DNA from: Escherichia phage PTXU04
Length of the DNA: 61,600 nucleotides
Sequence record: NC_048193.1
Reading direction: 5' to 3' (one strand)
Shown here: piece by piece, positions 10,886 through 52,165 of the stretch
How positions within the stretch are numbered: position 1 is the first letter of the stretch
Layout: the number at the start of each line of letters is the position of its first letter
Notes under the pieces: model-generated
What the model was told of the DNA's origin: nothing
Seen by the model: the letters and a program-made list of their open reading frames with translations, nothing else
Databases searched by the model: none
Made by a program: the position numbers and the translations under genes

Positions 10886-11296
10886 ATGTACTCTTACGAT
10901 AAATCTTTGCTGGCAAGTTACACGCTGGGTACGGCTGGCGCTGTAACGTTTGGAACAACTCCGGCTACCACTCTACCTGTATCGGCCATTGCTGAACTGT
11001 CTCATGACGCCAGCCGCGTGGTTGAAGGTGCGGTAGTTCTCGGTATCTCCGCGATCTACACTTCCGGCACAGGTACTATCTCTGTCGGTGACGGTACCAC
11101 GGCTGACCGTTACGGTGTGTTCACTGTTGACAGCACGTCTACACCGGGTGGCCCGTTGAAGGGTAAACTGGTGCTGACTGAAGAAGGTTATCACATGGGC
11201 GTTTCCAACGACGTCAACACCCCGCAGGTGTTCGTGCTGACCTACTCCGGTGATGCCGTACTGGCTGCCGCTCAAGTCACCGTTGGCCGCTACTAA
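10886..11296 (+). CDS. hypothetical virion protein (beta-rich, Gly/Thr-rich)
   Basis: 136 aa; GGAGG RBS; followed by a strong rho-independent terminator (11315-11340). Confidence 0.45.
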   Translation: MYSYDKSLLASYTLGTAGAVTFGTTPATTLPVSAIAELSHDASRVVEGAVVLGISAIYTSGTGTISVGDGTTADRYGVFTVDSTSTPGGPLKGKLVLTEEGYHMGVSNDVNTPQVFVLTYSGDAVLAAAQVTVGRY

Positions 11297-22648: not shown

Positions 22649-22689
22649 ATGTGCTATGCTTCCCCTATCAACAAGGGGGAGCATTTCTA

Positions 22690-25600
22690 ATGGCTAGTAA
22701 CATCGACCTTTCTGGACTGGACTTATCCCAGCCAAATCAACAACCTGCAACGAAGAAGTCTGAAAAGACTGCACCTGCTATTGACCTGTCGACGGTTAAC
22801 TTTGACCTGAGCGACGTAGACTTTTCCGGTATTGGAAATGAGAAGGCTGTCACAGAACCAGCAAAAGAAGATAGCTGGGGCGACGTAATTTACAAATCTC
22901 TCGCCGCGATGCCTGAGCGTATGCAACGTTCATGGCAGGGTATCAAACAAGGCGTGGCCGTTAAAGGTCAAGACCTGACTGACGGGGTGCTGGCTGAACG
23001 CCTGCGTAACGATCCGTCATATGCTGCCGAACTGGGGATTGACCCGGCTACCTTTACCGCTGCCGAAGGCGACACGTATGCGACCAAACTGCAAAAGAAT
23101 AAAGCTCTCTACGCCGCTATTGATAAAGCGAAGGCCGCAGAACTGAATAAGGATGCCGACTTTGTTGCCGCGCGTGATGAAGGTCTTCGCCTGTCAAACG
23201 AGATTGCCAAAACTGCACCGAAGACTGGTGACGAGTGGTCAGCTAAAAACCTGGTATCCACAATCCTCACTGGCGCGCAGGACATGTCTCCGGCAATCCT
23301 GACGTCCATCCTGTTGAAGCGTCCGGTCGCTGGCCTCGCTGAGATGACTGGTCAGGCGTACGGTTCCTACTATCAGGACTCAATCGACAAAGGTCTGTCT
23401 CCGGCAGAAGCCGATAACCGCGCTACCATGTTCGCCGCACTGGAACCAATCACTGAAGCGGTACCGCTGGGCCTCATCATGAAGAAGGGTGCGACTAGCC
23501 TGACTGACCTCGGTAAGTCTGCAATGGCTGAAGGTATCCAGGAGTCCGCTACCCAGGCTATCCAGAACGGTTACGACATTGGTGTGCTTGACGAAGATAT
23601 GACGGTAGGCCAGTTCCTGAATGACGTGGCGTTCTCCGGTGTAACTGGTGCTGGCGTAGGTGGCGTGCTGCATGGCGCGGTGCAAGCTCCCGGCATGGTC
23701 AAAGACTGGAAGGATAACCGCTCTGTTAACAACGCTATCGGTGACGCTGCGGCTGAGTCCGGTCAGGCGGTAGAAGGCGTGGACCCGAACGAGTACGACG
23801 CTGTGCGTGCTGAGATGGGCGGCGGTGACGTGCTGGACCAGATGGTTGAACAGGCATCTCCTGCAATCACTGAAGCTCGCAAGTCTGCCTACATGGAAGC
23901 GCGCGCCCAGGGTATGTCTCCGGCTGAAGCGATGGCCGCATCCCGTGAAGTCGGTGAAGTCGACGCTATGGATCAGATGGTCAGCGAACTGTTCGACTCC
24001 CCGGACTCCATCTACTATGCGAACAAGGCAAGCGCCACTAACGCACCGCAGTCTGTAGCACAGATGGTACAGCAGCAGGTAGCGCAGGGTGACATTGGTC
24101 CGCTTCCGGGCGAGACTAAAGGTCTGCCGTCTCCGGGGCAAACTTCCACCATCGCTATGCCCGGTCCAGTTGCGCAGGTTAAAGAGGCCACTGGCTACAA
24201 TCCACGCGGTGCGGCTGAAGAGTCTCCGGTACTGGCAGCAGTCCAGCAGAAACTGGAAGCGCCAGCACTGCCGCCGCAGGTTACTGAAGCTGTGGTACCG
24301 CCAGCACTGCCGCCTAAAGCTGAAGTGACTCCGCCTGCGTTACCGCAGATTGACGTAGCCGCTGCACTGGAACCTACCGTTCCTGCCGCTGAGCCAGCCG
24401 CTGCCGAGGTTAAACCGAAGCCAGCACTGTTTGCCCGTACCAAAAAGAAAGCCGCGCCAGAAGTCGATACAGAAGCACTGGCCGCCGAAGAAGCACGTCA
24501 GGCAGAACTGAAGGCGAAAGGTGACGAGGCTGTAGCCAAATACGTTGAGCGTGAATCCGTGCGTCCGGCGTTACCGGGTAAGAAGCCGCCAGCTATTCAG
24601 GTCACCAACAAGATCCTGAAGGAAGCCAACGAGCGTGGCGTTGACGTCGGCAATAAAGTGAACTGGAACGGCAAGGAGTATTCCGTCGATAAATTCCAGG
24701 GCCGTGCTGTACGTCTGGTTGATGAGAACGGCAACGGTCACATTGTTGATGCCCGTGAAATCAACGTGCCGTCTGTGGTACCGGAAGGTATGAAGCGTGT
24801 ATCCCAGGAAACCAAAGACGCCCGTGAGCGTTACGACCTGGCCCCTGTAGAGTTCGAAGATGAGCGCAACCTGGGTGAGATGGTTACCGATGCACAGCAG
24901 GCGACCGACGATGTACTGGCGCAGTCTGCCGAAGTTCAGCGTGACCTGGGTGAGATGATCGCTGAGAAGGAGAAGGACAACGCCGCAATTGAAGGTGAGT
25001 CCACTCGCGTTACCGACGTTGAAGGTCGTGTTGGTTTTGAACCAGTGGAAGGTACCGACCTGGACGGGAAGTATGCGAAAGACTCCCACGGTGAAGTCCG
25101 CAAGATTACTGGCGTGCAAGGTCGTCGCTTCGTGCTGGACAATGGCGACATCATGATTCGTCGCATTGGTGACACCAACGTGATGGATGCTCCACCTAAA
25201 GGCGCACGTAAAGCGATGTCGATGGAGGAACGTATTGTAGCTAACACGCTGCAAGGTATGCTGCATTCACTGAACGATACCAAGCGTCCGCTAAACAAAC
25301 TGCGCGAAAACATGTCTCACGCTAGTAATCAGGTTGATGAACAGTACCGCCATCTGTACGCGCCACTGAAGGGTAAGACTCGCGCGGCCATGCGCAAGGA
25401 ACTGGAAGACCGTATGTCCAGTATCGCTGAGCAGTCACCTAAAGGTCTGAGCAAAGAAAGTCAGGCGACGGCTGACCGCCTGCGTGAGAAGTCTTCCGCA
25501 CGCGCTGAGTCTTTCGAGAAGTCACTGGAAGATTTCACGCGTGGTATGAAACCGCTGGTACGTCGCAACTACATTCGCGCCCTGGAGAAGATGCAACCGG

Positions 25601-28600
25601 ACGGCATTACCCTGAAGGAAACCATCGACCGTGCGTATGCCCGTGGCGATAAAGTTGACTCCCGTGACATGTCGGCACCAGCCAGACATTACGTGGCCTA
25701 CAAAGAAGCTCGCGTACCGAAGAAGACTGACAAGCCGGACGTTACCCCGAACGTCGACTATCACACGCTGGTAGGTAAAACTTTCGAGGAAGACGGCGAG
25801 ACGTTCACCGTCAAGTCTATTCACGACACGTACCTGGCTACCGAAGACTCACAAGGTCGTCGTGAGATTTTCGGCAAGGATTACGCTAAGCGTAAGATCG
25901 ACAAGCAGTCCGGCGCGGCCAGCGTTAAGCCTGCGACCGAGAAGAAAGGGATGTCACCTGAAGATGTGGCTGTGGTTGCTACCGACTTCCTGAAGAAGTT
26001 CAAAGGTGCGCAGGCAATCAACATGTCCGTCATGCAGCGTCAGGAAGACATGGGTATCGACCTGCCGGAAGGTAGCGTACTGCTCGGCTTCTACGATGCT
26101 GGCAACGTGAGCGCCAAGCTGATCTCTGAAAACCTGACCAGCAAGGAAGAAGTGGAAGCGCTGTTGCGTCACGAAATCATCGTGCACTACGGCCTGCGCG
26201 CTCGCCTGTCTAAACCGGAATACGACGCTGAGATGGATAAAATCCTGGCCGCTGATAAGTCCCCGGCGCTGGCGAAGTATTTCAAAACTGTACGCGAGCA
26301 ATACAGCGACCTGTATGACATGAACTCACCTGACGCACAACGCATGATGGCTGAAGAAGTCCTGGCGCTGGCGGCAGAAAACCCGGCTATCCTGGAGAAG
26401 TCCAACGTCATTACCCGCGTGATTGAAGCTCTGCGTCAGTTGATGATTAAAGCCAAACTGATTGACGGTCGCGCCAGCATGGAGTCAGTACGCCAGCTTA
26501 TTCAGGCCAATGCTCAGTACCTGCGTGACAACACTGTCAACCGTGACGACGTGCGTAAGTCTCTGCCGCCGATGCAATACAGCGCGCCGAAGAACTTTGC
26601 CGCCAGCCTGAAAAAGAAAAATGACATCGAGTCTGCGGAAGTGGACGAAGACATCAAGCAGGGTATGCGTGACACCATGTACCGCGATGACCGCTCTCTG
26701 TTCCAGCGCATCAAAGACATCATGAAAGACAACGGTCTGACGATGGAAGGCTTGTATCAGAAAGGCGTGGATGACCTGTACACCATCGCCAAATATGAGA
26801 AGGCTGGCAACAATGGTGAACTGCGTCAGGGTAAAGAGTCAGCGTACAAGATGGCAATGCTGGCGAAGAACGTGAACAGCACCGTGGCCGTCGCAATGAA
26901 CCACGGCGCTCCGGTATACAAAGACGGCGGCATCAGCCTGAACAAGAACACCAAAGGCTTCACCGAAATCTTCAAGCCAGTGCTGGAGATGAAAGGTAAC
27001 ATGCTGCCAGTGTGGGAATACTGGGCGGGTGCTGTGCGTGCTAAGCGCTTGATGGAAGAAGGCCGCGAAAACCTGTATACCGAGAAGCAGATTAAAGACA
27101 TCATCGACTATGTTAACCGTCGCCCGGAAATGCGTAAGGTGTTCAACCAGGCACACAAAGACTGGCGTGAGTTCAACAAAGCTATCCTCGACTTCGGTGA
27201 GCAAACTGGCATCGTGGATCCTGAGCAGCGTAAACTGTTCGAGTCCGATGACTACGTTCCGTTCTACCGTGTGGATGAGGAAGTGGACCGTGTGACAGCA
27301 CCGTCTGGAAAACGTGGCCTCGCTGATCAGTCTTCCGGTATCCGCCGTCTGAAAGGTGGCGCTGGTAAGATGGACATTCTGGAGAACATGGCGCGTAACG
27401 TTAACCACATGATCACCTCCGGCTACAAGAACGCGGCCATGCAGAAGGTGCGTGACATCACCATCAACGCAGCGCTGGAAGAAGTACCGCATAACTTCAA
27501 GCCAGTCGGCATCAGCAACGAGCAGATGAAACGTGCGCTGACCAACCTGGGTCTGAAGGTTGAAGGTATGACCGCTGAGCAGATGGCGCAATACTCCAAC
27601 CTGTTCACCGCAGTAGCACCGCAGGGCGCTAACATTATCTCCGTGCGTGAAGGTGGTAAGCCGAAGTATTACGAAGTGACGGATCCTCAGTTGTTGGAAG
27701 CTATCGCAGGTGTTGGCCCGGAAGCCGTTGATACCCTCATCAACATTCTCGGCTGGCCTAAGCGTGTGTTCACCGCAGCCGTGACGTCAACGCCTAACTT
27801 CGTTATGACCAACTTCGTACGTGACGTGATGGGTAACTATGTGCAGATGGCTAAAGCAACTGGCCGCAACGAGACGTCAACGATTGTCAAAGATGTACTG
27901 ACATTCCGTCCGTTCTTTAAAGCGTTCCAGGGTGCGATGCGTTCTATCCGTAACGATAACATGACTGTCGATTACCATGTGGCTGGCGGCATGATGGGTG
28001 GTTATGACAACTCACGTCCAGAGTCGGTTGCCAAAAACCTGCGCAAGCTGGAGAAAGGCGGCACCATCATTAACTCACCGAAGAAGCTGTGGGAAATGTA
28101 CAGCAAGTTGCTGACCGCATCTGAACAGGCCACGCGCATGGGTGTGTACGAAGATGTCCTGAAGCACACTGGGGATCCGGTGGAAGCGGCATACCAGTCT
28201 AACGATGTGCTGAACTTCAGCCGCCGTGGTAGCAGTCGTTTGACCAAAGCGGTCATGGCGATCACCCCGTTCCTGAATGCCCGTGTACAGGGTCTGGACC
28301 GTATGGTGCGCGGTGGTAAAGAGAACCCGAAAGCCTTCATGCTAAAAGGTGCTCTGCTTGTTGGTGCAACGATGGCCCTTATGGCAATCAACGCAGACGA
28401 CGAACGTTACTGGGCGCTGCCGGAACACGAACGTGATTCCTTCTGGATCATCTTCGCTGGCGACACTCGCTACCGTATCCCGAAACCGTTCGAACTGGGA
28501 GCACTGTTCGGCACTATCCCTGAGCGTGCATTCGAAGCGCTGTACCGTGATGACCGTATGTTCGGTGCACGCATGGGCTTCATGCTGGGTAACACCTTCG

Positions 28601-29283
28601 CGATGGACTGGCCTCAATTCTTCAAGCCAATCTACGAAGACCAGACCAACATGAACAGCTTTACTCAGCGTCCGGTTGTACCGCAGTCACTGCAACGTCT
28701 GGAAGCTAACCAGCAGTACAGCACCACGACGCCGGAATGGATTAAGGATGTGAGTAAGGCGTTACCTGAAGCTGCCCCGGAATGGATGCGTAGTCCGCTG
28801 CGTCTCCAGCATATGATTGAAGGTTACACCGGAACAGTCGGTCAGTACATCATCGGCGTAACGGACGTGGCCTACCGCAAAGGAACGGGTACCGAAAAAG
28901 TTGCCCCGGCTAAAAAGGATTTTGATTACCCGGTGGTAAAAACTTTCGTACGTGGCGGTGTGTCCGGCGACAAATACACCGACCGTCTGTACCAGATGAG
29001 CGAGAAGGCTGGTCAAACGTACGGTACCCTGAAGGCGTACAAAGACCAGAAGAACATGCAGGCGTATCGGGAGTTCAAGACCGAGAAGGCCAGCGTGTTG
29101 TCTGCCCGTAAGTCAATTGAGAAAGGCGTTGCCCGGATGCAGAAGTACAACCGCCAGACGAAAGAGATTTACGCGAACGACAGTATGTCACCTGAAGCGA
29201 AGCGTGCGGAACTGGACGCCTTACAGGTTAAGAAGAACGAACTGGCGAAAGAATTGAGTGACAAATATTGGATGTTGTTTTAA
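22690..29283 (+). CDS. giant virion-associated protein (~2200 aa; putative internal/ejection protein)
   Basis: ORF-track frame 22651-29283; start moved to ATG 22690 with AAGGGGGAG RBS. No P-loop or polymerase motif recognised; last gene of the structural block; followed by hairpin plus T8 (29324-29354). Confidence 0.55.
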   Translation: MASNIDLSGLDLSQPNQQPATKKSEKTAPAIDLSTVNFDLSDVDFSGIGNEKAVTEPAKEDSWGDVIYKSLAAMPERMQRSWQGIKQGVAVKGQDLTDGVLAERLRNDPSYAAELGIDPATFTAAEGDTYATKLQKNKALYAAIDKAKAAELNKDADFVAARDEGLRLSNEIAKTAPKTGDEWSAKNLVSTILTGAQDMSPAILTSILLKRPVAGLAEMTGQAYGSYYQDSIDKGLSPAEADNRATMFAALEPITEAVPLGLIMKKGATSLTDLGKSAMAEGIQESATQAIQNGYDIGVLDEDMTVGQFLNDVAFSGVTGAGVGGVLHGAVQAPGMVKDWKDNRSVNNAIGDAAAESGQAVEGVDPNEYDAVRAEMGGGDVLDQMVEQASPAITEARKSAYMEARAQGMSPAEAMAASREVGEVDAMDQMVSELFDSPDSIYYANKASATNAPQSVAQMVQQQVAQGDIGPLPGETKGLPSPGQTSTIAMPGPVAQVKEATGYNPRGAAEESPVLAAVQQKLEAPALPPQVTEAVVPPALPPKAEVTPPALPQIDVAAALEPTVPAAEPAAAEVKPKPALFARTKKKAAPEVDTEALAAEEARQAELKAKGDEAVAKYVERESVRPALPGKKPPAIQVTNKILKEANERGVDVGNKVNWNGKEYSVDKFQGRAVRLVDENGNGHIVDAREINVPSVVPEGMKRVSQETKDARERYDLAPVEFEDERNLGEMVTDAQQATDDVLAQSAEVQRDLGEMIAEKEKDNAAIEGESTRVTDVEGRVGFEPVEGTDLDGKYAKDSHGEVRKITGVQGRRFVLDNGDIMIRRIGDTNVMDAPPKGARKAMSMEERIVANTLQGMLHSLNDTKRPLNKLRENMSHASNQVDEQYRHLYAPLKGKTRAAMRKELEDRMSSIAEQSPKGLSKESQATADRLREKSSARAESFEKSLEDFTRGMKPLVRRNYIRALEKMQPDGITLKETIDRAYARGDKVDSRDMSAPARHYVAYKEARVPKKTDKPDVTPNVDYHTLVGKTFEEDGETFTVKSIHDTYLATEDSQGRREIFGKDYAKRKIDKQSGAASVKPATEKKGMSPEDVAVVATDFLKKFKGAQAINMSVMQRQEDMGIDLPEGSVLLGFYDAGNVSAKLISENLTSKEEVEALLRHEIIVHYGLRARLSKPEYDAEMDKILAADKSPALAKYFKTVREQYSDLYDMNSPDAQRMMAEEVLALAAENPAILEKSNVITRVIEALRQLMIKAKLIDGRASMESVRQLIQANAQYLRDNTVNRDDVRKSLPPMQYSAPKNFAASLKKKNDIESAEVDEDIKQGMRDTMYRDDRSLFQRIKDIMKDNGLTMEGLYQKGVDDLYTIAKYEKAGNNGELRQGKESAYKMAMLAKNVNSTVAVAMNHGAPVYKDGGISLNKNTKGFTEIFKPVLEMKGNMLPVWEYWAGAVRAKRLMEEGRENLYTEKQIKDIIDYVNRRPEMRKVFNQAHKDWREFNKAILDFGEQTGIVDPEQRKLFESDDYVPFYRVDEEVDRVTAPSGKRGLADQSSGIRRLKGGAGKMDILENMARNVNHMITSGYKNAAMQKVRDITINAALEEVPHNFKPVGISNEQMKRALTNLGLKVEGMTAEQMAQYSNLFTAVAPQGANIISVREGGKPKYYEVTDPQLLEAIAGVGPEAVDTLINILGWPKRVFTAAVTSTPNFVMTNFVRDVMGNYVQMAKATGRNETSTIVKDVLTFRPFFKAFQGAMRSIRNDNMTVDYHVAGGMMGGYDNSRPESVAKNLRKLEKGGTIINSPKKLWEMYSKLLTASEQATRMGVYEDVLKHTGDPVEAAYQSNDVLNFSRRGSSRLTKAVMAITPFLNARVQGLDRMVRGGKENPKAFMLKGALLVGATMALMAINADDERYWALPEHERDSFWIIFAGDTRYRIPKPFELGALFGTIPERAFEALYRDDRMFGARMGFMLGNTFAMDWPQFFKPIYEDQTNMNSFTQRPVVPQSLQRLEANQQYSTTTPEWIKDVSKALPEAAPEWMRSPLRLQHMIEGYTGTVGQYIIGVTDVAYRKGTGTEKVAPAKKDFDYPVVKTFVRGGVSGDKYTDRLYQMSEKAGQTYGTLKAYKDQKNMQAYREFKTEKASVLSARKSIEKGVARMQKYNRQTKEIYANDSMSPEAKRAELDALQVKKNELAKELSDKYWMLF

Positions 29284-29774: not shown

Positions 29775-29994
29775 TTCAATCCCGGTGGACGCTCCGTTAC
29801 CTTTCATTGCGATCGCAGTGTTATTCAACCTGGTACGCCATGCGTTGAATCTTCACCACGAACGTAAGAAGGAGGCAGCGGAAGAGGCCACGAACGAAAG
29901 GATTGTTGTGTTGTCGTCGAAGCTGGCGAAGGCGGAACAGACTATCGAGCACTTGAGGGAAGAGGTGGAACGATTGAAAAACAAAGGGGCTTAA
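29761..29994 (+). CDS. small TM plus coiled-coil protein (spanin-like or antiholin-like?)
   Basis: 77 aa; N-terminal TM (PFIAIAVLFNLV) then charged coiled coil; GGGAG RBS; stop lies in the loop of the bidirectional terminator. Confidence 0.4.
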   Translation: MFELSSIPVDAPLPFIAIAVLFNLVRHALNLHHERKKEAAEEATNERIVVLSSKLAKAEQTIEHLREEVERLKNKGA

Positions 29995-30005
29995 CGCCCC
30001 TTTTT
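29986..30005. terminator. bidirectional rho-independent terminator at the convergence of late (+) and early (-) blocks
   Basis: AAA GGGGC TTAAC GCCCC TTTTT; the stop codons of 29761-29994 (+) and 29991-30191 (-) both sit in the loop. Confidence 0.6.
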
Positions 30006-38522: not shown

Positions 38523-39257
38523 TTAGATAACTGACTGGCTGCGCAGGAAGTCATCGTTGGTGGCGTACTGCCAGAAGGTAAACTTGTAGCCAGACTGGAT
38601 GTCTTTCGCAGTCTTACCACCAGTGATACCGAACAGGCCGTACAGTTTTTCCAGTGCATCAGCACCATGCTTGTGGGCCAGCGCCGCAGCGGTCTGTTCC
38701 ATCGCTTCGTCGGTAGCACCGGACTCATCAGCGATTGCCGGGAAGTCGATCGCAACAGGTACCTGCGGTGCCAGCGGCGGCAGACCTACGCCAGCCAGCG
38801 GCGGTAAACCAGGCTGCGGTGCGACAGGTGCCTGCGGTGCAACGGCAGGTGCTTCAACTTCTTCAGCAGTGGCAACTTCACCACGCAGTTCCGCTTCAAC
38901 CTGCGGTACCAGCACTTCACGATCAACACCGCGCAGATATTTCCAGGTGCCGTCAGCATTGAAGGTCTTAGCCGCAGAGTGGATACGGGAGTCCCACGGT
39001 AGACCGTTCTTATCCAGCGTGGTAGCATCCGTTTCCTGACCGATTGACTGCGCTACTTCTTCAGCAACTTCGTCAGCAGCATCAGCGAAGGACTGTTGGT
39101 TACCAGCGGTACCGACCGGAGTCAGACCTTTCGCTACAGCGCCACCGAATACTGACTTCAGATCAGCTTCCAACAATTCGTAAACGCTGCCAGGCATGTT
39201 GTTAGCGCGAATCAGTTCAACGATCAGGTTGTATTTTTGTTCGATAGTAAAAGCCAT
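38523..39257 (-). CDS. hypothetical protein with Pro/Ala-rich linker
   Basis: 244 aa; GGAG RBS; internal PAVAPQAPVAPQPGLPPLAGVGLPPLAPQVPVA linker. Confidence 0.5.
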   Translation of the reverse strand: MAFTIEQKYNLIVELIRANNMPGSVYELLEADLKSVFGGAVAKGLTPVGTAGNQQSFADAADEVAEEVAQSIGQETDATTLDKNGLPWDSRIHSAAKTFNADGTWKYLRGVDREVLVPQVEAELRGEVATAEEVEAPAVAPQAPVAPQPGLPPLAGVGLPPLAPQVPVAIDFPAIADESGATDEAMEQTAAALAHKHGADALEKLYGLFGITGGKTAKDIQSGYKFTFWQYATNDDFLRSQSVI

Positions 39258-39310
39258 GTTGTATTACTCCAGGTTGATTAAAGTTTTGTTGTGTCGTGTT
39301 GACGGAATGA

Positions 39311-39340
39311 ATCATACACTCAACCAAAAACCGATTGCAA
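39311..39340 (-). promoter_or_regulatory. putative sigma70-like promoter for 38523-39257
   Basis: On the - strand: -35 TTGCAA (39340-39335), 18-nt spacer, -10 TATGAT (39316-39311). Confidence 0.35.
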
Positions 39341-39363
39341 TACTTTTTTAAAAATTTTATTAT
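39335..39363 (+). promoter_or_regulatory. putative sigma70-like promoter for the + strand helicase/primase island
   Basis: -35 TTGCAA (39335-39340), 17-nt AT-rich spacer, -10 TATTAT (39358-39363). The palindromic -35 hexamer is shared with the divergent - strand promoter. Confidence 0.4.
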
Positions 39364-39398
39364 CCTCTTCGTCAACACACATATAAGAGAACATCGAG

Positions 39399-41267
39399 AT
39401 GGCAAAACGTACCGCACGCCCCTATCAGGCGAAGGTTATCAATGAGTATTTCACCTGCTTGCACGCAGGCTACAAGGCACCTGTCATCATAATGAGTACG
39501 GGCGCAGGTAAAACTTTTTGCTTCACCAGCATAGTTGAACAGATGGTTGCCGCTGGTCACATGTGTATCGTCTTCTGTCACCGTTCAGAACTGGTGCGTC
39601 AAATCTCAATGAGTCTGGCAACACAGGAGTTGCATCACGACTTTATATGCAGCGACAAGACTCGCGCCATCTGCGGTAACGTGCAGCAGGCAGAGTTCGG
39701 TCGCACCTATTATCGCCCCGGCGCACCTATAATCGTGGCCTCTGTACAGACCGTCAACGCCAGACTTAAAGAAAGTCCGAAGTCTACCCCTCAGCGTAAA
39801 GCTATGCGCGAGGCCACGCTTCAGTTATTAATGCGCTGCACCTTTGGTGTATTTGATGAGTCGCACCACCTGACGCGCGACAATACCTTCGGTCGCCCTC
39901 TACAATATATGAATCCTCAAGCACGCTATTTGCTGGTAACGGCAACACCGGAACGTGCCGACGGTAAAGGTATGGGCGCGGTATCAATGCAGGGTAGTGG
40001 CATCGTCGACGTTGTGATCAAAGGGCCGGAAATGCGCTGGCTGATTGACCAGGGTAACTTGTGCGACTATAAAATTTATGAGCCACCTACGGAACAGGCT
40101 GACTTTACTAAGGTGCGCGTGACTGCCAGCGGGGACTACAACCAGCAGGACCAGGCGCGTGAGATGGACAAGGCTAAAATCACTGGCGATGTAGTGCGCC
40201 ACTACCAGGAACTCATCAATGGAAAACTCACAATTGTATTTTGCTGTGACATCTCCCACGCTCAGTCTGTGGCCAACGCTTACCAGCGCGCAGGGATACC
40301 AGCCGCCGTACTCCACGGAGGCGATGATGAATCTACACGTTTCAAGACCCTCCAGGCTTTCGAGCGCCGTGAAATACTTGTGCTCGTTACCGTTGATCTT
40401 GTCTCAGAAGGGTTCGACTTACCTGCAATTGAGGCAGCACAATTTCTGCGACGCACAATGTCTTTATCCTGGTTCATGCAAGCGTTCGGTCGTGTCCTGC
40501 GCCCGTCGCCCGGTAAAGATTATGCGATTATACTCGATCATGTGGGAAACTGGCGGGAGCATGGCCTTCCCGATAAGCCCCGCGTCTGGTCAATGGCAGA
40601 CCGAAAAGGCGGCAAGTCTTCGAGCAGCGATGATGACACAGTTCCGGTTACCCGTTGTCGTGTCCCTGTCGACAAGTCCGGCAGGTTCACACCTGAGCAA
40701 TGCGCCGTCATGTCAGCCGACGAGCAACTCAACAACGGAATCAGACCATGTGGATACATCTACGAAATCACCGAGCCACGCTGCCCCGATTGTGGGTGTC
40801 GACAGCCACTGGCCCCGCGAGGTGAACCCGTCATGGTTAAAGGTCAATTAGTAGAAGTGTCTGCGGAAGAACTGGCGAAGATGCGAGCGGGTGACGATTC
40901 CATCAGCGACCAGGCTGCGGTATGGCGTCAGGAGATTCAGGAAGATTTACTCAAACTGAAGATGTCACCGGAAGAATACGTAGCCCGGATGCACGTACCC
41001 GCCGTTGCTCATACTACGCAGATCAATAACCATCGCCGCTGGCGTGCAATGCAGGCCACACTCAAGCCATTGATGGATGAATGGATGGAGTACCACCAGA
41101 AAGGTGACGTGCACAAGGAAGCCGCACAACAGCTTTTCTTAAACCGCTTCGGCATCAACGTCTACTATGCGCAGGTGCTGAAACCTAAAGAGTGTTTTGA
41201 ACTGATTGAGAAAATCAAAGCACACCTCGAAGAGATTCATGCCAAAGGAGGCTTGACCTATGCGTAA
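39399..41267 (+). CDS. superfamily 2 (DEAD/DEAH-type) helicase
   Basis: 622 aa; motif I MSTGAGKTF, motif II FDESHH, motif VI QAFGRVLR; C-terminal CPDCGC zinc-finger-like element. Confidence 0.75.
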   Translation: MAKRTARPYQAKVINEYFTCLHAGYKAPVIIMSTGAGKTFCFTSIVEQMVAAGHMCIVFCHRSELVRQISMSLATQELHHDFICSDKTRAICGNVQQAEFGRTYYRPGAPIIVASVQTVNARLKESPKSTPQRKAMREATLQLLMRCTFGVFDESHHLTRDNTFGRPLQYMNPQARYLLVTATPERADGKGMGAVSMQGSGIVDVVIKGPEMRWLIDQGNLCDYKIYEPPTEQADFTKVRVTASGDYNQQDQAREMDKAKITGDVVRHYQELINGKLTIVFCCDISHAQSVANAYQRAGIPAAVLHGGDDESTRFKTLQAFERREILVLVTVDLVSEGFDLPAIEAAQFLRRTMSLSWFMQAFGRVLRPSPGKDYAIILDHVGNWREHGLPDKPRVWSMADRKGGKSSSSDDDTVPVTRCRVPVDKSGRFTPEQCAVMSADEQLNNGIRPCGYIYEITEPRCPDCGCRQPLAPRGEPVMVKGQLVEVSAEELAKMRAGDDSISDQAAVWRQEIQEDLLKLKMSPEEYVARMHVPAVAHTTQINNHRRWRAMQATLKPLMDEWMEYHQKGDVHKEAAQQLFLNRFGINVYYAQVLKPKECFELIEKIKAHLEEIHAKGGLTYA

Positions 41268-44938: not shown

Positions 44939-45127
44939 ATGAAAATCACACCACTGAAGGAATGGATTGAAGGTCACCGCTCGTTAACGGCTGCGGCTGA
45001 AGTGCTCGACGTTCCAAAACAAAACCTGTCGTTTGCTTTGAACAAAGTGAAGGGCGCTACGTTTGTGCTGGAGGAAGACGACGGGACACTGCGGTTGTTA
45101 CGTGAGGTTGCAAAAAGGGGCGCATAA
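44939..45127 (+). CDS. hypothetical protein
   Basis: 62-aa ORF with AAGGAGG RBS; stop in the loop of the terminator at 45118-45142. Confidence 0.4.
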   Translation: MKITPLKEWIEGHRSLTAAAEVLDVPKQNLSFALNKVKGATFVLEEDDGTLRLLREVAKRGA

Positions 45128-45142
45128 GCGCCCTTAGTTTTT
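45118..45142. terminator. rho-independent terminator at the convergent junction
   Basis: GGGCGC-ATAA-GCGCCC stem-loop followed by TTAGTTTTT; the stop codons of 44939-45127 (+) and 45141-45323 (-) flank or overlap it. Confidence 0.5.
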
Positions 45143-51312: not shown

Positions 51313-51525
51313 TTACCAACTAGCAAAACATTTATCGGTCGGTTGGCGGATCATCCATTCACCATAAATAAACTTAATCGTTAGAAACGTGTCGTTGCGG
51401 TTACCTTTAATCGCCTTAACTTTTAGCGCCCGTCTAAGGTTCCGCCAGCGCGGCTCCCATACCAGATCGCCAGGGTTAAGTTTGCCGTAGGTAGTCAGGC
51501 GGAAGTGTGGTTTATTTGTTGCCAT
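51313..51525 (-). CDS. hypothetical protein
   Basis: ORF-track frame 51313-51573; likely start at ATG 51525 to limit overlap with the upstream gene. Confidence 0.35.
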   Translation of the reverse strand: MATNKPHFRLTTYGKLNPGDLVWEPRWRNLRRALKVKAIKGNRNDTFLTIKFIYGEWMIRQPTDKCFASW

Positions 51526-52165
51526 CGGATGGTACCCCACACAGCGCGTTAAGCGTGGACACATCAAGCGCAATCTCGGTTGACTGCGGTTTCTCGGTCG
51601 CCGGGATTAATTCAGCCGCTTCCGGCCAGGCTTTCAACAGCGCAGCAACATTGCGGAACGGCTTAAGCTGGGCTTTCAGTGTGGAGTGAAGGTTCTCGTA
51701 GTCCTTGCGCAGCGCCTTAGCGTCGGCATCGATCGCCATAAGCTCATCGCGTGCGGATTCATACGGGTAGACCAGACCTTCACCAACAGGCCAGGCGGGT
51801 ACGATGCAATGCTCGACGTCAGCGCCGCTGTCAGCGAACAATGACCGCGCCTCATCATAACGGTTGCCGTAGTGCAGACCGTCAATGCGTAAGTTGTGAC
51901 TGTGACCGCACACGTTGACGTAAAAGTAATCGCTCGTTACCTGAGCGTGAACAGTGCCGAACGCTTTTAAGTCGTCATTGATATGATCAGCGTCACGTTT
52001 GAGCGCCAAGATTTCCTCAATGCTCAGACCGGATTGCTTCAGGAAGTAGTCACGGATACGCACAGCCACCGCAGAGCGACGGGCGCAGATGGCCTTGTCG
52101 CGTTCGACGATACCGGATTTGTGCTCGGCGTTGCGTAAGATAGCGTCTATAATTGATTGTTTCAT
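51512..52165 (-). CDS. hypothetical protein
   Basis: 217-aa ORF; no confident motif (a CGHSHN segment is not enough to call a phosphoesterase). Confidence 0.45.
   Translation of the reverse strand: MKQSIIDAILRNAEHKSGIVERDKAICARRSAVAVRIRDYFLKQSGLSIEEILALKRDADHINDDLKAFGTVHAQVTSDYFYVNVCGHSHNLRIDGLHYGNRYDEARSLFADSGADVEHCIVPAWPVGEGLVYPYESARDELMAIDADAKALRKDYENLHSTLKAQLKPFRNVAALLKAWPEAAELIPATEKPQSTEIALDVSTLNALCGVPSDGNK

Follow-up and report, generated by a model that had tools for sequence, protein, structure and literature searches.

A predicted pair of divergent sigma-70 promoters sharing one palindromic -35 hexamer between the replication operons of Escherichia phage PTXU04

In the genome of Escherichia phage PTXU04 (NC_048193.1; the window is the whole stretch of 61,600 nucleotides analyzed here), a gap of 141 bp (39258-39398) divides the two halves of the DNA-replication gene cluster. 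PTXU04 is the type phage of Xuquatrovirus (PMC6563267), and in the phage collection it comes closest to Pondi and HelliStehle_Bas95 (91-93% identity), which the BASEL paper gives as its sole known relatives in a group whose biology is termed "enigmatic" (PMC11990801). No promoters or start sites of PTXU04 are reported in its description paper (PMC6563267) or in the CRISPRi-ART study, and a literature search found no start-site or RNA-seq report for PTXU04 or its relatives. The leftward operon comprises gp40, a DUF2800 exonuclease, a gp2.5-like single-stranded DNA-binding protein (SSB), the DNA polymerase and then more genes, and the rightward operon comprises an SF2 helicase, a D5-type primase and Dam. 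Neither operon has a gene upstream of it in the same direction, so that each needs a promoter at or near the gap. The flanking genes and the hairpins that bound the two units are as follows:

38523-39257, - strand: PTXU04_00040 (gp40), first gene of the leftward operon, 244 aa, without known domain or assigned function
39399-41267, + strand: SF2 helicase (ResIII and Helicase_C), first gene of the rightward operon
45116-45135, both strands: bidirectional intrinsic-terminator-like hairpin, 8 and 6 pairs, with T-runs on both strands
29983-30003, - strand: terminator-like hairpin of 8 pairs followed by GTTTTTC

The hairpin at 45116-45135 likely marks the end of the rightward operon and of a converging early operon, and the hairpin at 29983-30003 likely marks the end of the leftward transcription unit. 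The region is AT-rich, with a GC content of 25% at 39310-39399 against ~52% for the genome. A small conserved open reading frame spanning the gap (39196-39351 on the + strand or 39217-39417 on the - strand) was rejected, because the many indels among the relatives are not multiples of three.

The sequence-only reading had placed a promoter on each strand of this gap, with the hexamer TTGCAA, which is its own reverse complement, as the -35 element of both. Direct inspection of the sequence found the hexamer, TATTAT with its 17-nt spacer and TATGAT with its 18-nt spacer exactly where they had been noted, and the following elements can be laid out around them:

39335-39340, both strands: TTGCAA, palindromic shared -35 hexamer, 4/6 to TTGACA in either orientation, symmetry center of the control region
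39358-39363, + strand: TATTAT, -10 hexamer of the predicted rightward promoter (helicase, primase, Dam), 17-nt spacer
39311-39316, - strand: TATGAT, -10 hexamer of the predicted leftward promoter (gp40, exonuclease, SSB, DNA polymerase), 18-nt spacer
39370-39398, + strand: predicted rightward leader, from a start at about 39370 (the 7th nt after the -10) to the helicase ATG at 39399
39385-39391, + strand: AAGAGAA, purine-rich ribosome-binding region of the rightward leader, read from the sequence
39258-39304, - strand: predicted leftward leader of 47 nt, from a start at about 39304 to the ATG at 39257
39270-39267, - strand: GGAG, leftward ribosome-binding site, read from the sequence

Each promoter, on the + and on the - strand, matches the sigma-70 consensus at 9 of 12 positions. 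The TTG of the -35 element makes the strongest contacts with sigma region 4, and TTGCAA reads TTG on both strands, being the sole hexamer that can do so. Both -10 hexamers have the A2 and T6 characteristic of sigma-70 promoters and lie within the canonical 17 +/- 1 nt of the -35 (TATTAT at 17 nt and TATGAT at 18 nt). The -10 hexamers are 41 bp apart and the predicted starts (39304 and 39370) ~66 bp apart; the latter face outward, and the flanking genes diverge in all relatives, which corresponds to the back-to-back type in the classification of divergent promoters that Beck and Warren reportedly proposed in 1988.

Regarding the polymerase, neither the Bas95 annotation nor Pfam scans of the 27 largest open reading frames revealed an RNA polymerase, a sigma factor or an obvious transcription factor, and the host sigma-70 holoenzyme is taken as the default, with room left for small phage modifiers of the polymerase. 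The other strong promoter-like sites, located before early genes and correctly oriented, have the form TTGAC(A/G)-17-TATATT or similar; their resemblance to the sigma-70 consensus argues that the phage uses the host polymerase, and their TTGAC(A/G) indicates that the deviation to TTGCAA is specific to the replication junction. Two other promoter classes were rejected. A sigma-54 promoter (GG at -24 and GC at -12; TGGCAC-N5-TTGCW) would fit the TTGCA, but neither strand has a GG 10 nt upstream of the GC (39325-39326 are occupied by C and A, 39349-39350 by T and A). A T4-type middle promoter would carry the MotA box (a/t)(a/t)TGCTT(t/c)A at -30, and here positions -35 to -30 read TTGCAA and not TGCTT; additionally, no MotA- or AsiA-like annotation or Pfam match was found in the Bas95 annotation and the 27 largest open reading frames. 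A composite pattern, TTGNNN-N16-18-TANNNT-N5-7-CGTCA, occurs four times in the genome against 0.22 expected, all within the replication module; apart from the pair itself, the two other sites carry TTGACG, not TTGCAA.

Taken as bare consensus matches, the two promoters are not above chance. Sites with 9/12 matches are found genome-wide at about the numbers expected from shuffled sequence (26 vs 20.8, 17 vs 14.2 and 11 vs 11.8), and when the gap was shuffled 20,000 times with its dinucleotides preserved, a 9/12 match arose on one strand in 23% and on both strands in 5.8%. The sharing is much rarer, the same -35 hexamer serving both promoters in only 5 of the 20,000 shuffles (0.025%), and scored with a textbook position-weight matrix, the two promoters come 18th and 30th among ~123,000 genome positions. 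TTGCAA itself occurs only six times in the genome; as a repeated phage-specific promoter motif, TTGCAA-N16-18-TANNNT was rejected, since its sole two genome matches are the pair itself. A purely accidental origin of the arrangement is excluded by its conservation.

Relatives were collected by a protein search with the helicase and by contig look-ups, which gave graded identities of 93, 76, 68-71 and 42-47%; a scan of a viral contig collection with the helicase gave no match. The surrounding DNA was fetched for twelve relatives, of which eleven were usable (the sequence of L024 starts only 9 nt ahead of the ATG and is uninformative), and four Vibrio phage records, with helicases 33-34% identical, were added. 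Including PTXU04, Pondi and Bas95, the comparison covers 19 sequences in ~13 distinct lineages, with helicase identity from 93% to 33%; these lineages are related, so that the conservation counts are not counts of independent events. The divergent junction is present wherever the upstream DNA of a relative was available. The gaps themselves are indel-rich and only 45-65% identical in pairs (alignment of 11 relatives), and TTGCAA is nevertheless unchanged throughout that alignment, in a further relative (L023) and in the four Vibrio records; a column shuffle gives P=0.0014 for six invariant columns in a row. Such invariance is what a dual use of the hexamer predicts, since dual use constrains all six positions and single use leaves positions 4-6 free.

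The + strand -10 is also well kept. Its variants are TATTNT, TAATAT and TATACT, with T1, A2 and T6 fixed throughout (in alignment A3, T4 is invariant as well), and its spacer is 17 nt in all E. coli-type relatives and 18 nt, with TATACT, in the Vibrio phages. A C-1/A+1 dinucleotide, the classical start context, stands exactly 7 nt past this -10 and is conserved in the E. coli-type relatives, in which the predicted rightward leaders are 17-21 nt long. When each gap was scanned with the position-weight matrix, the promoter based on TTGCAA ranked top in 10 of 11 gaps for the + strand and in 8 of 11 for the - strand, another - strand site scoring higher in the other three.

The leftward side is less uniform, and the way in which it varies is itself informative. 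A - strand -10-like hexamer stands 17-18 nt from TTGCAA in every lineage and always retains T6, although it is much less conserved than its + strand counterpart (TATGAT, TATGCT, TATACT, TATAGT, TATATT, AAGACT, TGTACT, TTTACT and TTAACT). The four weak types (AAGACT, TGTACT, TTTACT and TTAACT) each follow directly on a TGn, giving an extended -10, which the strong types all lack; three of the four (TGTACT, TTTACT and TTAACT) have lost A2, each of them with TGn. Judging from the sequences, compensation of this kind would be expected only if the - strand site works as a promoter.

Additionally, each leftward leader was folded from a predicted start at the 7th nt after the - strand -10, and in every relative the RNA would form a stem-loop 0-4 nt from its 5' end, with a stability of -7 to -14 kcal/mol. 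The stems differ in sequence (GCC/GGC, GACC/GGUC, GCAAC/GUUGC, GCAGCG/CGCUGC and GUCAC/GUGAC), and this covariation argues for an RNA structure and, through it, for transcription of the - strand from the predicted start. RNAalifold gave no consensus for the leftward leaders, as indels break the register, and Rfam returned only two chance-level matches (E 0.46 and 0.9, ~18 bits against thresholds of 39-48). The ompA leader, as reportedly described by Emory, Bouvet and Belasco in 1992, carries a 5'-terminal stem-loop that stabilizes its mRNA, and the stem-loop of the relatives, 0-4 nt from the predicted leftward 5' end, probably acts likewise on the leftward mRNA. The comparison differs in that the start is here a predicted one and in that the stem of PTXU04 has shrunk to 3 bp (-1.9 kcal/mol).

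The DNA to the right of TTGCAA appears to carry a second set of signals, whose elements are these:

39342-39363, - strand: UP-element-like A/T tracts of the leftward promoter, reading ATAATAAAATTTTTAAAAAAGT, on the opposite strand of the rightward spacer and -10
39326-39330, + strand: A5 tract, 4 nt upstream of the -35, resembling a proximal UP subsite of the rightward promoter and lying within the leftward spacer

The UP-element consensus is reportedly NNAAAWWTWTTTTNNNAAANNN (according to Estrem, Gaal, Ross and Gourse in 1998), and ATAATAAAATTTTTAAAAAAGT agrees with it at 12 of its 14 specified positions in the -59 to -38 register of the leftward promoter, as an UP element should by sequence. 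Among 11 distinct E. coli-type sequences this match is 10-12/14, against a gap background of 5.2 +/- 2.2, and only 2.2% of the 22-mers in the gaps score at least 11. Several positions in the T/A tracts of the rightward spacer are invariant, which is odd for a spacer and is explained by the in-register UP match. By sequence, the 29 bp to the right of TTGCAA is therefore dual-coded, as the predicted rightward core promoter and as a putative UP-like element of the leftward one. It resembles UP elements of the rrnB P1 type in having A/T tracts at -59 to -38 with a 12/14 match, and differs from them in that the opposing promoter would use its bases as spacer and -10 and in the poorer match of the Vibrio phages. 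In the latter, the in-register match is 9/14 and the A/T tracts are weaker, whereas the hexamers and the hairpin are kept, so that the UP feature may have been acquired later. The rightward promoter matches the UP consensus at only 5-8/14 positions in register; the region of its A5 tract is A-rich in the E. coli-type relatives, and the tract is absent in the Vibrio phages.

The symmetry of the control region extends well beyond the hexamer. TTGCAA is the center of a quasi-palindrome of 83 bp, consisting of a palindrome at 39326-39349 and of inverted-repeat arms of 21 nt (pair I1; 39296-39316 and 39358-39378), which are 76% complementary about the same center. Within these arms lie two 9-nt segments at the predicted starts:

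39296-39304, + strand: left arm of an inverted repeat, GTGTTGACG; its - strand complement CGTCAACAC forms nucleotides 1-9 of the predicted leftward transcript
39370-39378, + strand: right arm of the inverted repeat, CGTCAACAC, which forms nucleotides 1-9 of the predicted rightward transcript

PTXU04, Pondi and Bas95 have ~9 extra nt on the right side compared with the other relatives, and as a consequence both predicted transcripts start with an identical CGUCAACAC. Concurrently, the leftward hairpin of PTXU04 is reduced to 3 bp. Among the three phages the gap retains 98-99% identity, as against 33-41% for the 5' region of gp40 and 86-96% for the helicase. GTGTTGACG was considered as a dispersed operator motif and rejected; with one mismatch it occurs at chance frequency, and its sole other exact copy is at 11212.

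Taken together, the invariant hexamer, the fixed 17-18-nt spacers, the conservation of the -10 elements, the TGn compensation, the C-1/A+1 dinucleotide and the stem-loop support the proposal that one palindromic -35 serves sigma-70 promoters on both strands, and we consider it probable that the gap holds a back-to-back pair of host sigma-70 promoters in an 83-bp quasi-palindrome around a single shared -35. Some of the same features could be read differently. If only the rightward promoter used TTGCAA, the symmetry could be the operator of a dimeric DNA-binding protein and leftward transcription could start elsewhere, for example at 39757, where an antisense 9/12 site (TTGACG-17-GATTAT) lies on the - strand inside the helicase gene. 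The far better conservation of the + side elements than of the - side -10 would fit such an operator, and so would the extended palindrome at 39326-39349, the tendency of the bases flanking the hexamer to remain palindromic (ATTGCAAT, TTTGCAAA and GTTGCAAC) and the invariant spacer positions, unusual for a plain sigma-70 spacer. It is nonetheless an unlikely account, because every lineage keeps a - side -10-like hexamer at 17-18 nt, compensated by TGn where weak, and the stem-loop falls exactly at the start which that hexamer predicts. Moreover, the in-register UP match accounts for the spacer invariance, the flanks of the hexamer are wholly different in the E. coli and Vibrio groups, unlike those of an operator, and no DNA-binding regulator was identified nearby.

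It is also conceivable, with a probability that we put quite low, that the pair represents "middle" promoters of the phage, at which a phage factor of the sigma-appropriation or class II type would sit on the palindrome, at about -33 of both promoters, and the host polymerase would rely chiefly on the -10 or extended -10. Phages typically express their replication genes in the delayed-early or middle phase, TTGCAA departs from the TTGAC(A/G) found at the consensus-like early promoters, the fourfold CGTCA pattern (0.22 expected) hints at a promoter class, and many small early open reading frames are without known function. On the other hand, the TTG of the strongest sigma region-4 contacts is kept on both strands at a canonical spacing of 17-18 nt, the UP-like element implies direct contact between alpha-CTD and DNA, TTGCAA is not repeated at other promoters (the two other CGTCA sites having TTGACG), and no transcription factor, MotA/AsiA-like or other, was detected in the Bas95 annotation or the Pfam scans. 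That the AT-rich quasi-palindrome serves chiefly as an origin of replication or a DNA-unwinding element, with promoter-like hexamers that are incidental or serve transcriptional activation of the origin, seems very improbable. The drop in GC to 25%, the position between the helicase/primase and polymerase genes and the presence of inverted repeats and T6A5 tracts would suit an origin, but neither iterons nor direct repeats were found in the region and no GC-skew extremum was found at the gap. The conserved positions are those of promoters (-35, T1, A2 and T6 of the -10, and +1) and not a generic AT-rich stretch, the Vibrio relatives retain the hexamers and not the A/T tracts, and with an origin in place both operons would still need promoters at the gap.

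Under the favored reading of a shared -35, the sigma-70 holoenzyme would bind TTGCAA in either orientation. In the rightward one it would use TTGCAA, the 17-nt spacer and TATTAT to start near 39370 and transcribe helicase, primase and Dam, and in the leftward one TTGCAA, the 18-nt spacer and TATGAT to start near 39304 and transcribe gp40, exonuclease, SSB, DNA polymerase and further genes. The UP-like element would boost the leftward promoter, which has the weaker core, and the balance between the two arms would be set by their private -10, UP and leader elements. Since one hexamer cannot hold two sigma region-4 domains, occupancy should be mutually exclusive and initiation should alternate. 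The coupling of the two units that the sequence-only reading had proposed would thus directly be one of competition or alternation; co-regulation is plausible and would need a factor acting on the shared box, where blocking or remodeling of -35 recognition would switch both arms together.

Several known systems bear comparison with this arrangement. The PR and PRM promoters of lambda have separate -35 boxes and starts ~82 bp apart, and CI and Cro operators govern both. Like the predicted pair of PTXU04, they are two outward-facing sigma-70 promoters in one short phage control region with non-overlapping transcripts; unlike them, the -35 boxes of PTXU04 coincide fully and no operator is evident. 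The closest documented case found is umuDAb-ddrR of Acinetobacter, in which divergent starts have been mapped, both -35 elements overlap one inverted repeat, TTGAA(A/T), and the authors infer tightly coordinated expression (PMC7273328). Both systems, as predicted for PTXU04, are back-to-back divergent promoters with their -35 elements on one inverted repeat, but in Acinetobacter the repeat is the operator of the UmuDAb repressor, whereas the hexamer of PTXU04 is exactly shared and perfectly palindromic, with no known repressor. A literature search for shared or overlapping -35 elements returned only this Acinetobacter case, and any claim to novelty is limited to its scope, which did not extend to older subscription literature.

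The bidirectional promoters described by Warman, Grainger et al., of which torS/torT is an example (PMC13644379), have a symmetric shared -10, starts 7-25 bp apart (mode 18) and a -35 of their own for each direction (bioRxiv 10.1101/2020.01.31.928960; PMC12825309). In that class, as predicted here, a symmetric element is read both ways by the sigma-70 polymerase and binding in one direction excludes the other, and there the promoters often drive mRNAs. The layout of PTXU04 is the mirror image, with a shared -35 and separate -10 elements, and membership in the class was rejected, as the -10 elements are 41 bp apart and the predicted starts ~66 bp apart instead of 7-25 bp. According to the Grainger laboratory, competition at promoters with a shared -10 is visible only at high activity (PMC12825309). 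One might speculate, though we hold it doubtful, that shared -35 promoters form a second, unnamed class of symmetric bidirectional promoters, and that this phage clade has long kept one as a single switch of its replication module, in which mutually exclusive polymerase binding determines how strongly each arm is expressed relative to the other and a factor acting on one hexamer turns the whole unit on or off; the added, identical 9-nt CGTCAACAC starts of PTXU04 may then be the handle of the factor concerned.

What is unusual here is the exact sharing of a palindromic -35, together with the dual-coded UP-like element and a conservation that reaches so deep, although the parts are ordinary sigma-70 elements and no principle is overturned. 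The PTXU04-like phages (Xuquatrovirus and relatives) are almost uncharacterized and no promoter had been described for them; a precise transcription map of their replication module can now be proposed, in which two operons of ~5.8 and ~9.3 kb would be driven from one unit of ~70 bp. The junction would be a compact, natural and evolutionarily robust instance of dual-coded regulatory DNA, which complements the recently defined shared -10 class and in which competition between polymerases for one -35 could be studied simply, and it might be used as a small bidirectional expression part. The clade that has this layout appears to be bounded, since the arrangement is absent in four remoter phages that bear the helicase (Pseudoalteromonas PY6, Pseudomonas Psp6, Salmonella Sasha and Klebsiella 1611E-K2-1). 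Pseudoalteromonas PY6 has a face-to-face TTGACA pair instead.

The pattern TTGNNN-N16-18-TANNNT-N5-7-CGTCA, in which a promoter-like arrangement is joined to the pentamer CGTCA, occurs four times in the genome against 0.22 copies expected, and none of 200 shuffles (0/200) reached four. All four sites recovered by this pattern match are contained in the replication module and each is oriented along its genes:

Composite CGTCA sites
33017->32989, - strand, TTGACG-17-TACATT, directly past the DNA polymerase gene
37690->37661, - strand, TTGACG-18-TACAGT, within the exonuclease gene
39340, - strand, leftward site on the TTGCAA box
39335, + strand, rightward site on the TTGCAA box

Both TTGACG sites are conserved in the nearest relatives, Pondi and Bas95 (with an altered spacer in the 33017 site), and may represent internal promoters having a class-specific CGTCA start region. 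At the shared TTGCAA box, the rightward leader of PTXU04, Pondi and Bas95 carries approximately 9 extra nucleotides, as a result of which both predicted transcripts begin alike:

Identical predicted transcript starts
39296-39304, leftward leader, CGUCAACAC
39370-39378, rightward leader, CGUCAACAC

In these three phages the hairpin of the leftward leader retains only 3 bp; it is strong in every other relative. The palindrome TTGCAA itself was found 6 times in the genome compared to 21.5 ± 4.5 in shuffled sequences, a tally that possibly counts the palindrome on both strands; if the scarcity is real, the cause could be avoidance of restriction, or counter-selection of two-way promoters that arise by accident.

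Among distant helicase-bearing phages, the same helicase junction in Pseudoalteromonas phage PY6 (L016 1406-1497) differs from that of PTXU04 in having two inverted TTGACA boxes placed face-to-face (TTGACA-17-TATTCT on one strand and TTGACA-17-TAACTT on the other), an alternative solution for two-way transcription in which the transcripts overlap. Upstream of its helicase operon, Pseudomonas phage Psp6 (L018 823-911) carries GGTTGCAA-C-GGTTGCAA in tandem, and Salmonella phage Sasha (L019 1334-1503) has two promoter-like tandem repeats, GTCAAGAAyTATTTTAmACT, of which one uses TTGCAA as its -35 box; the two-way layout is not apparent in either of these two regions.

Near the right genome end, small leftward genes are preceded by a near-consensus sigma-70-like family, (A/T-rich)-TTAC-TTGAC(G/A)-17-TAtatT, whose members, identified by sequence pattern, are probably early promoters used by the host polymerase. 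Two strong terminator-like hairpins were also found, the first located at the point where the leftward early operon converges with the rightward operon of replication genes:

Probable early promoters, terminator-like hairpins and an early gene
60607, 55947, 51303, 48756 and 47073 (-35 starts), - strand, sigma-70-like promoter family
45116-45135, both strands, strong bidirectional intrinsic-terminator-like hairpin
30003-29983, - strand, second strong terminator-like hairpin
51512-52165, - strand, early gene product with an Nmad5 (nucleotide-modification-associated) domain

The N-terminal coding DNA of gp40 (39101-39257, the 5' part of PTXU04_00040) shows 33-41% identity to Pondi and Bas95 vs 98-99% in the adjoining gap, a comparison of sequences that suggests an exchanged module or a rapidly changing protein. 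A published list of proteins that are toxic in E. coli or that interfere with infection includes gp40 (PMC11879866). The replication module hosts active selfish elements: the Bas95 helicase (L001 6881-9745) contains an annotated intein, which the PTXU04 and Pondi helicases lack, and the Bas95 DNA polymerase CDS (L001 462-2724) is annotated as two joined pieces. Elsewhere, a 2,210-aa protein with an LPD38 polyvalent-protein domain is encoded at 22651-29283 (+ strand), and the portal protein is similar to that of phage SU10.
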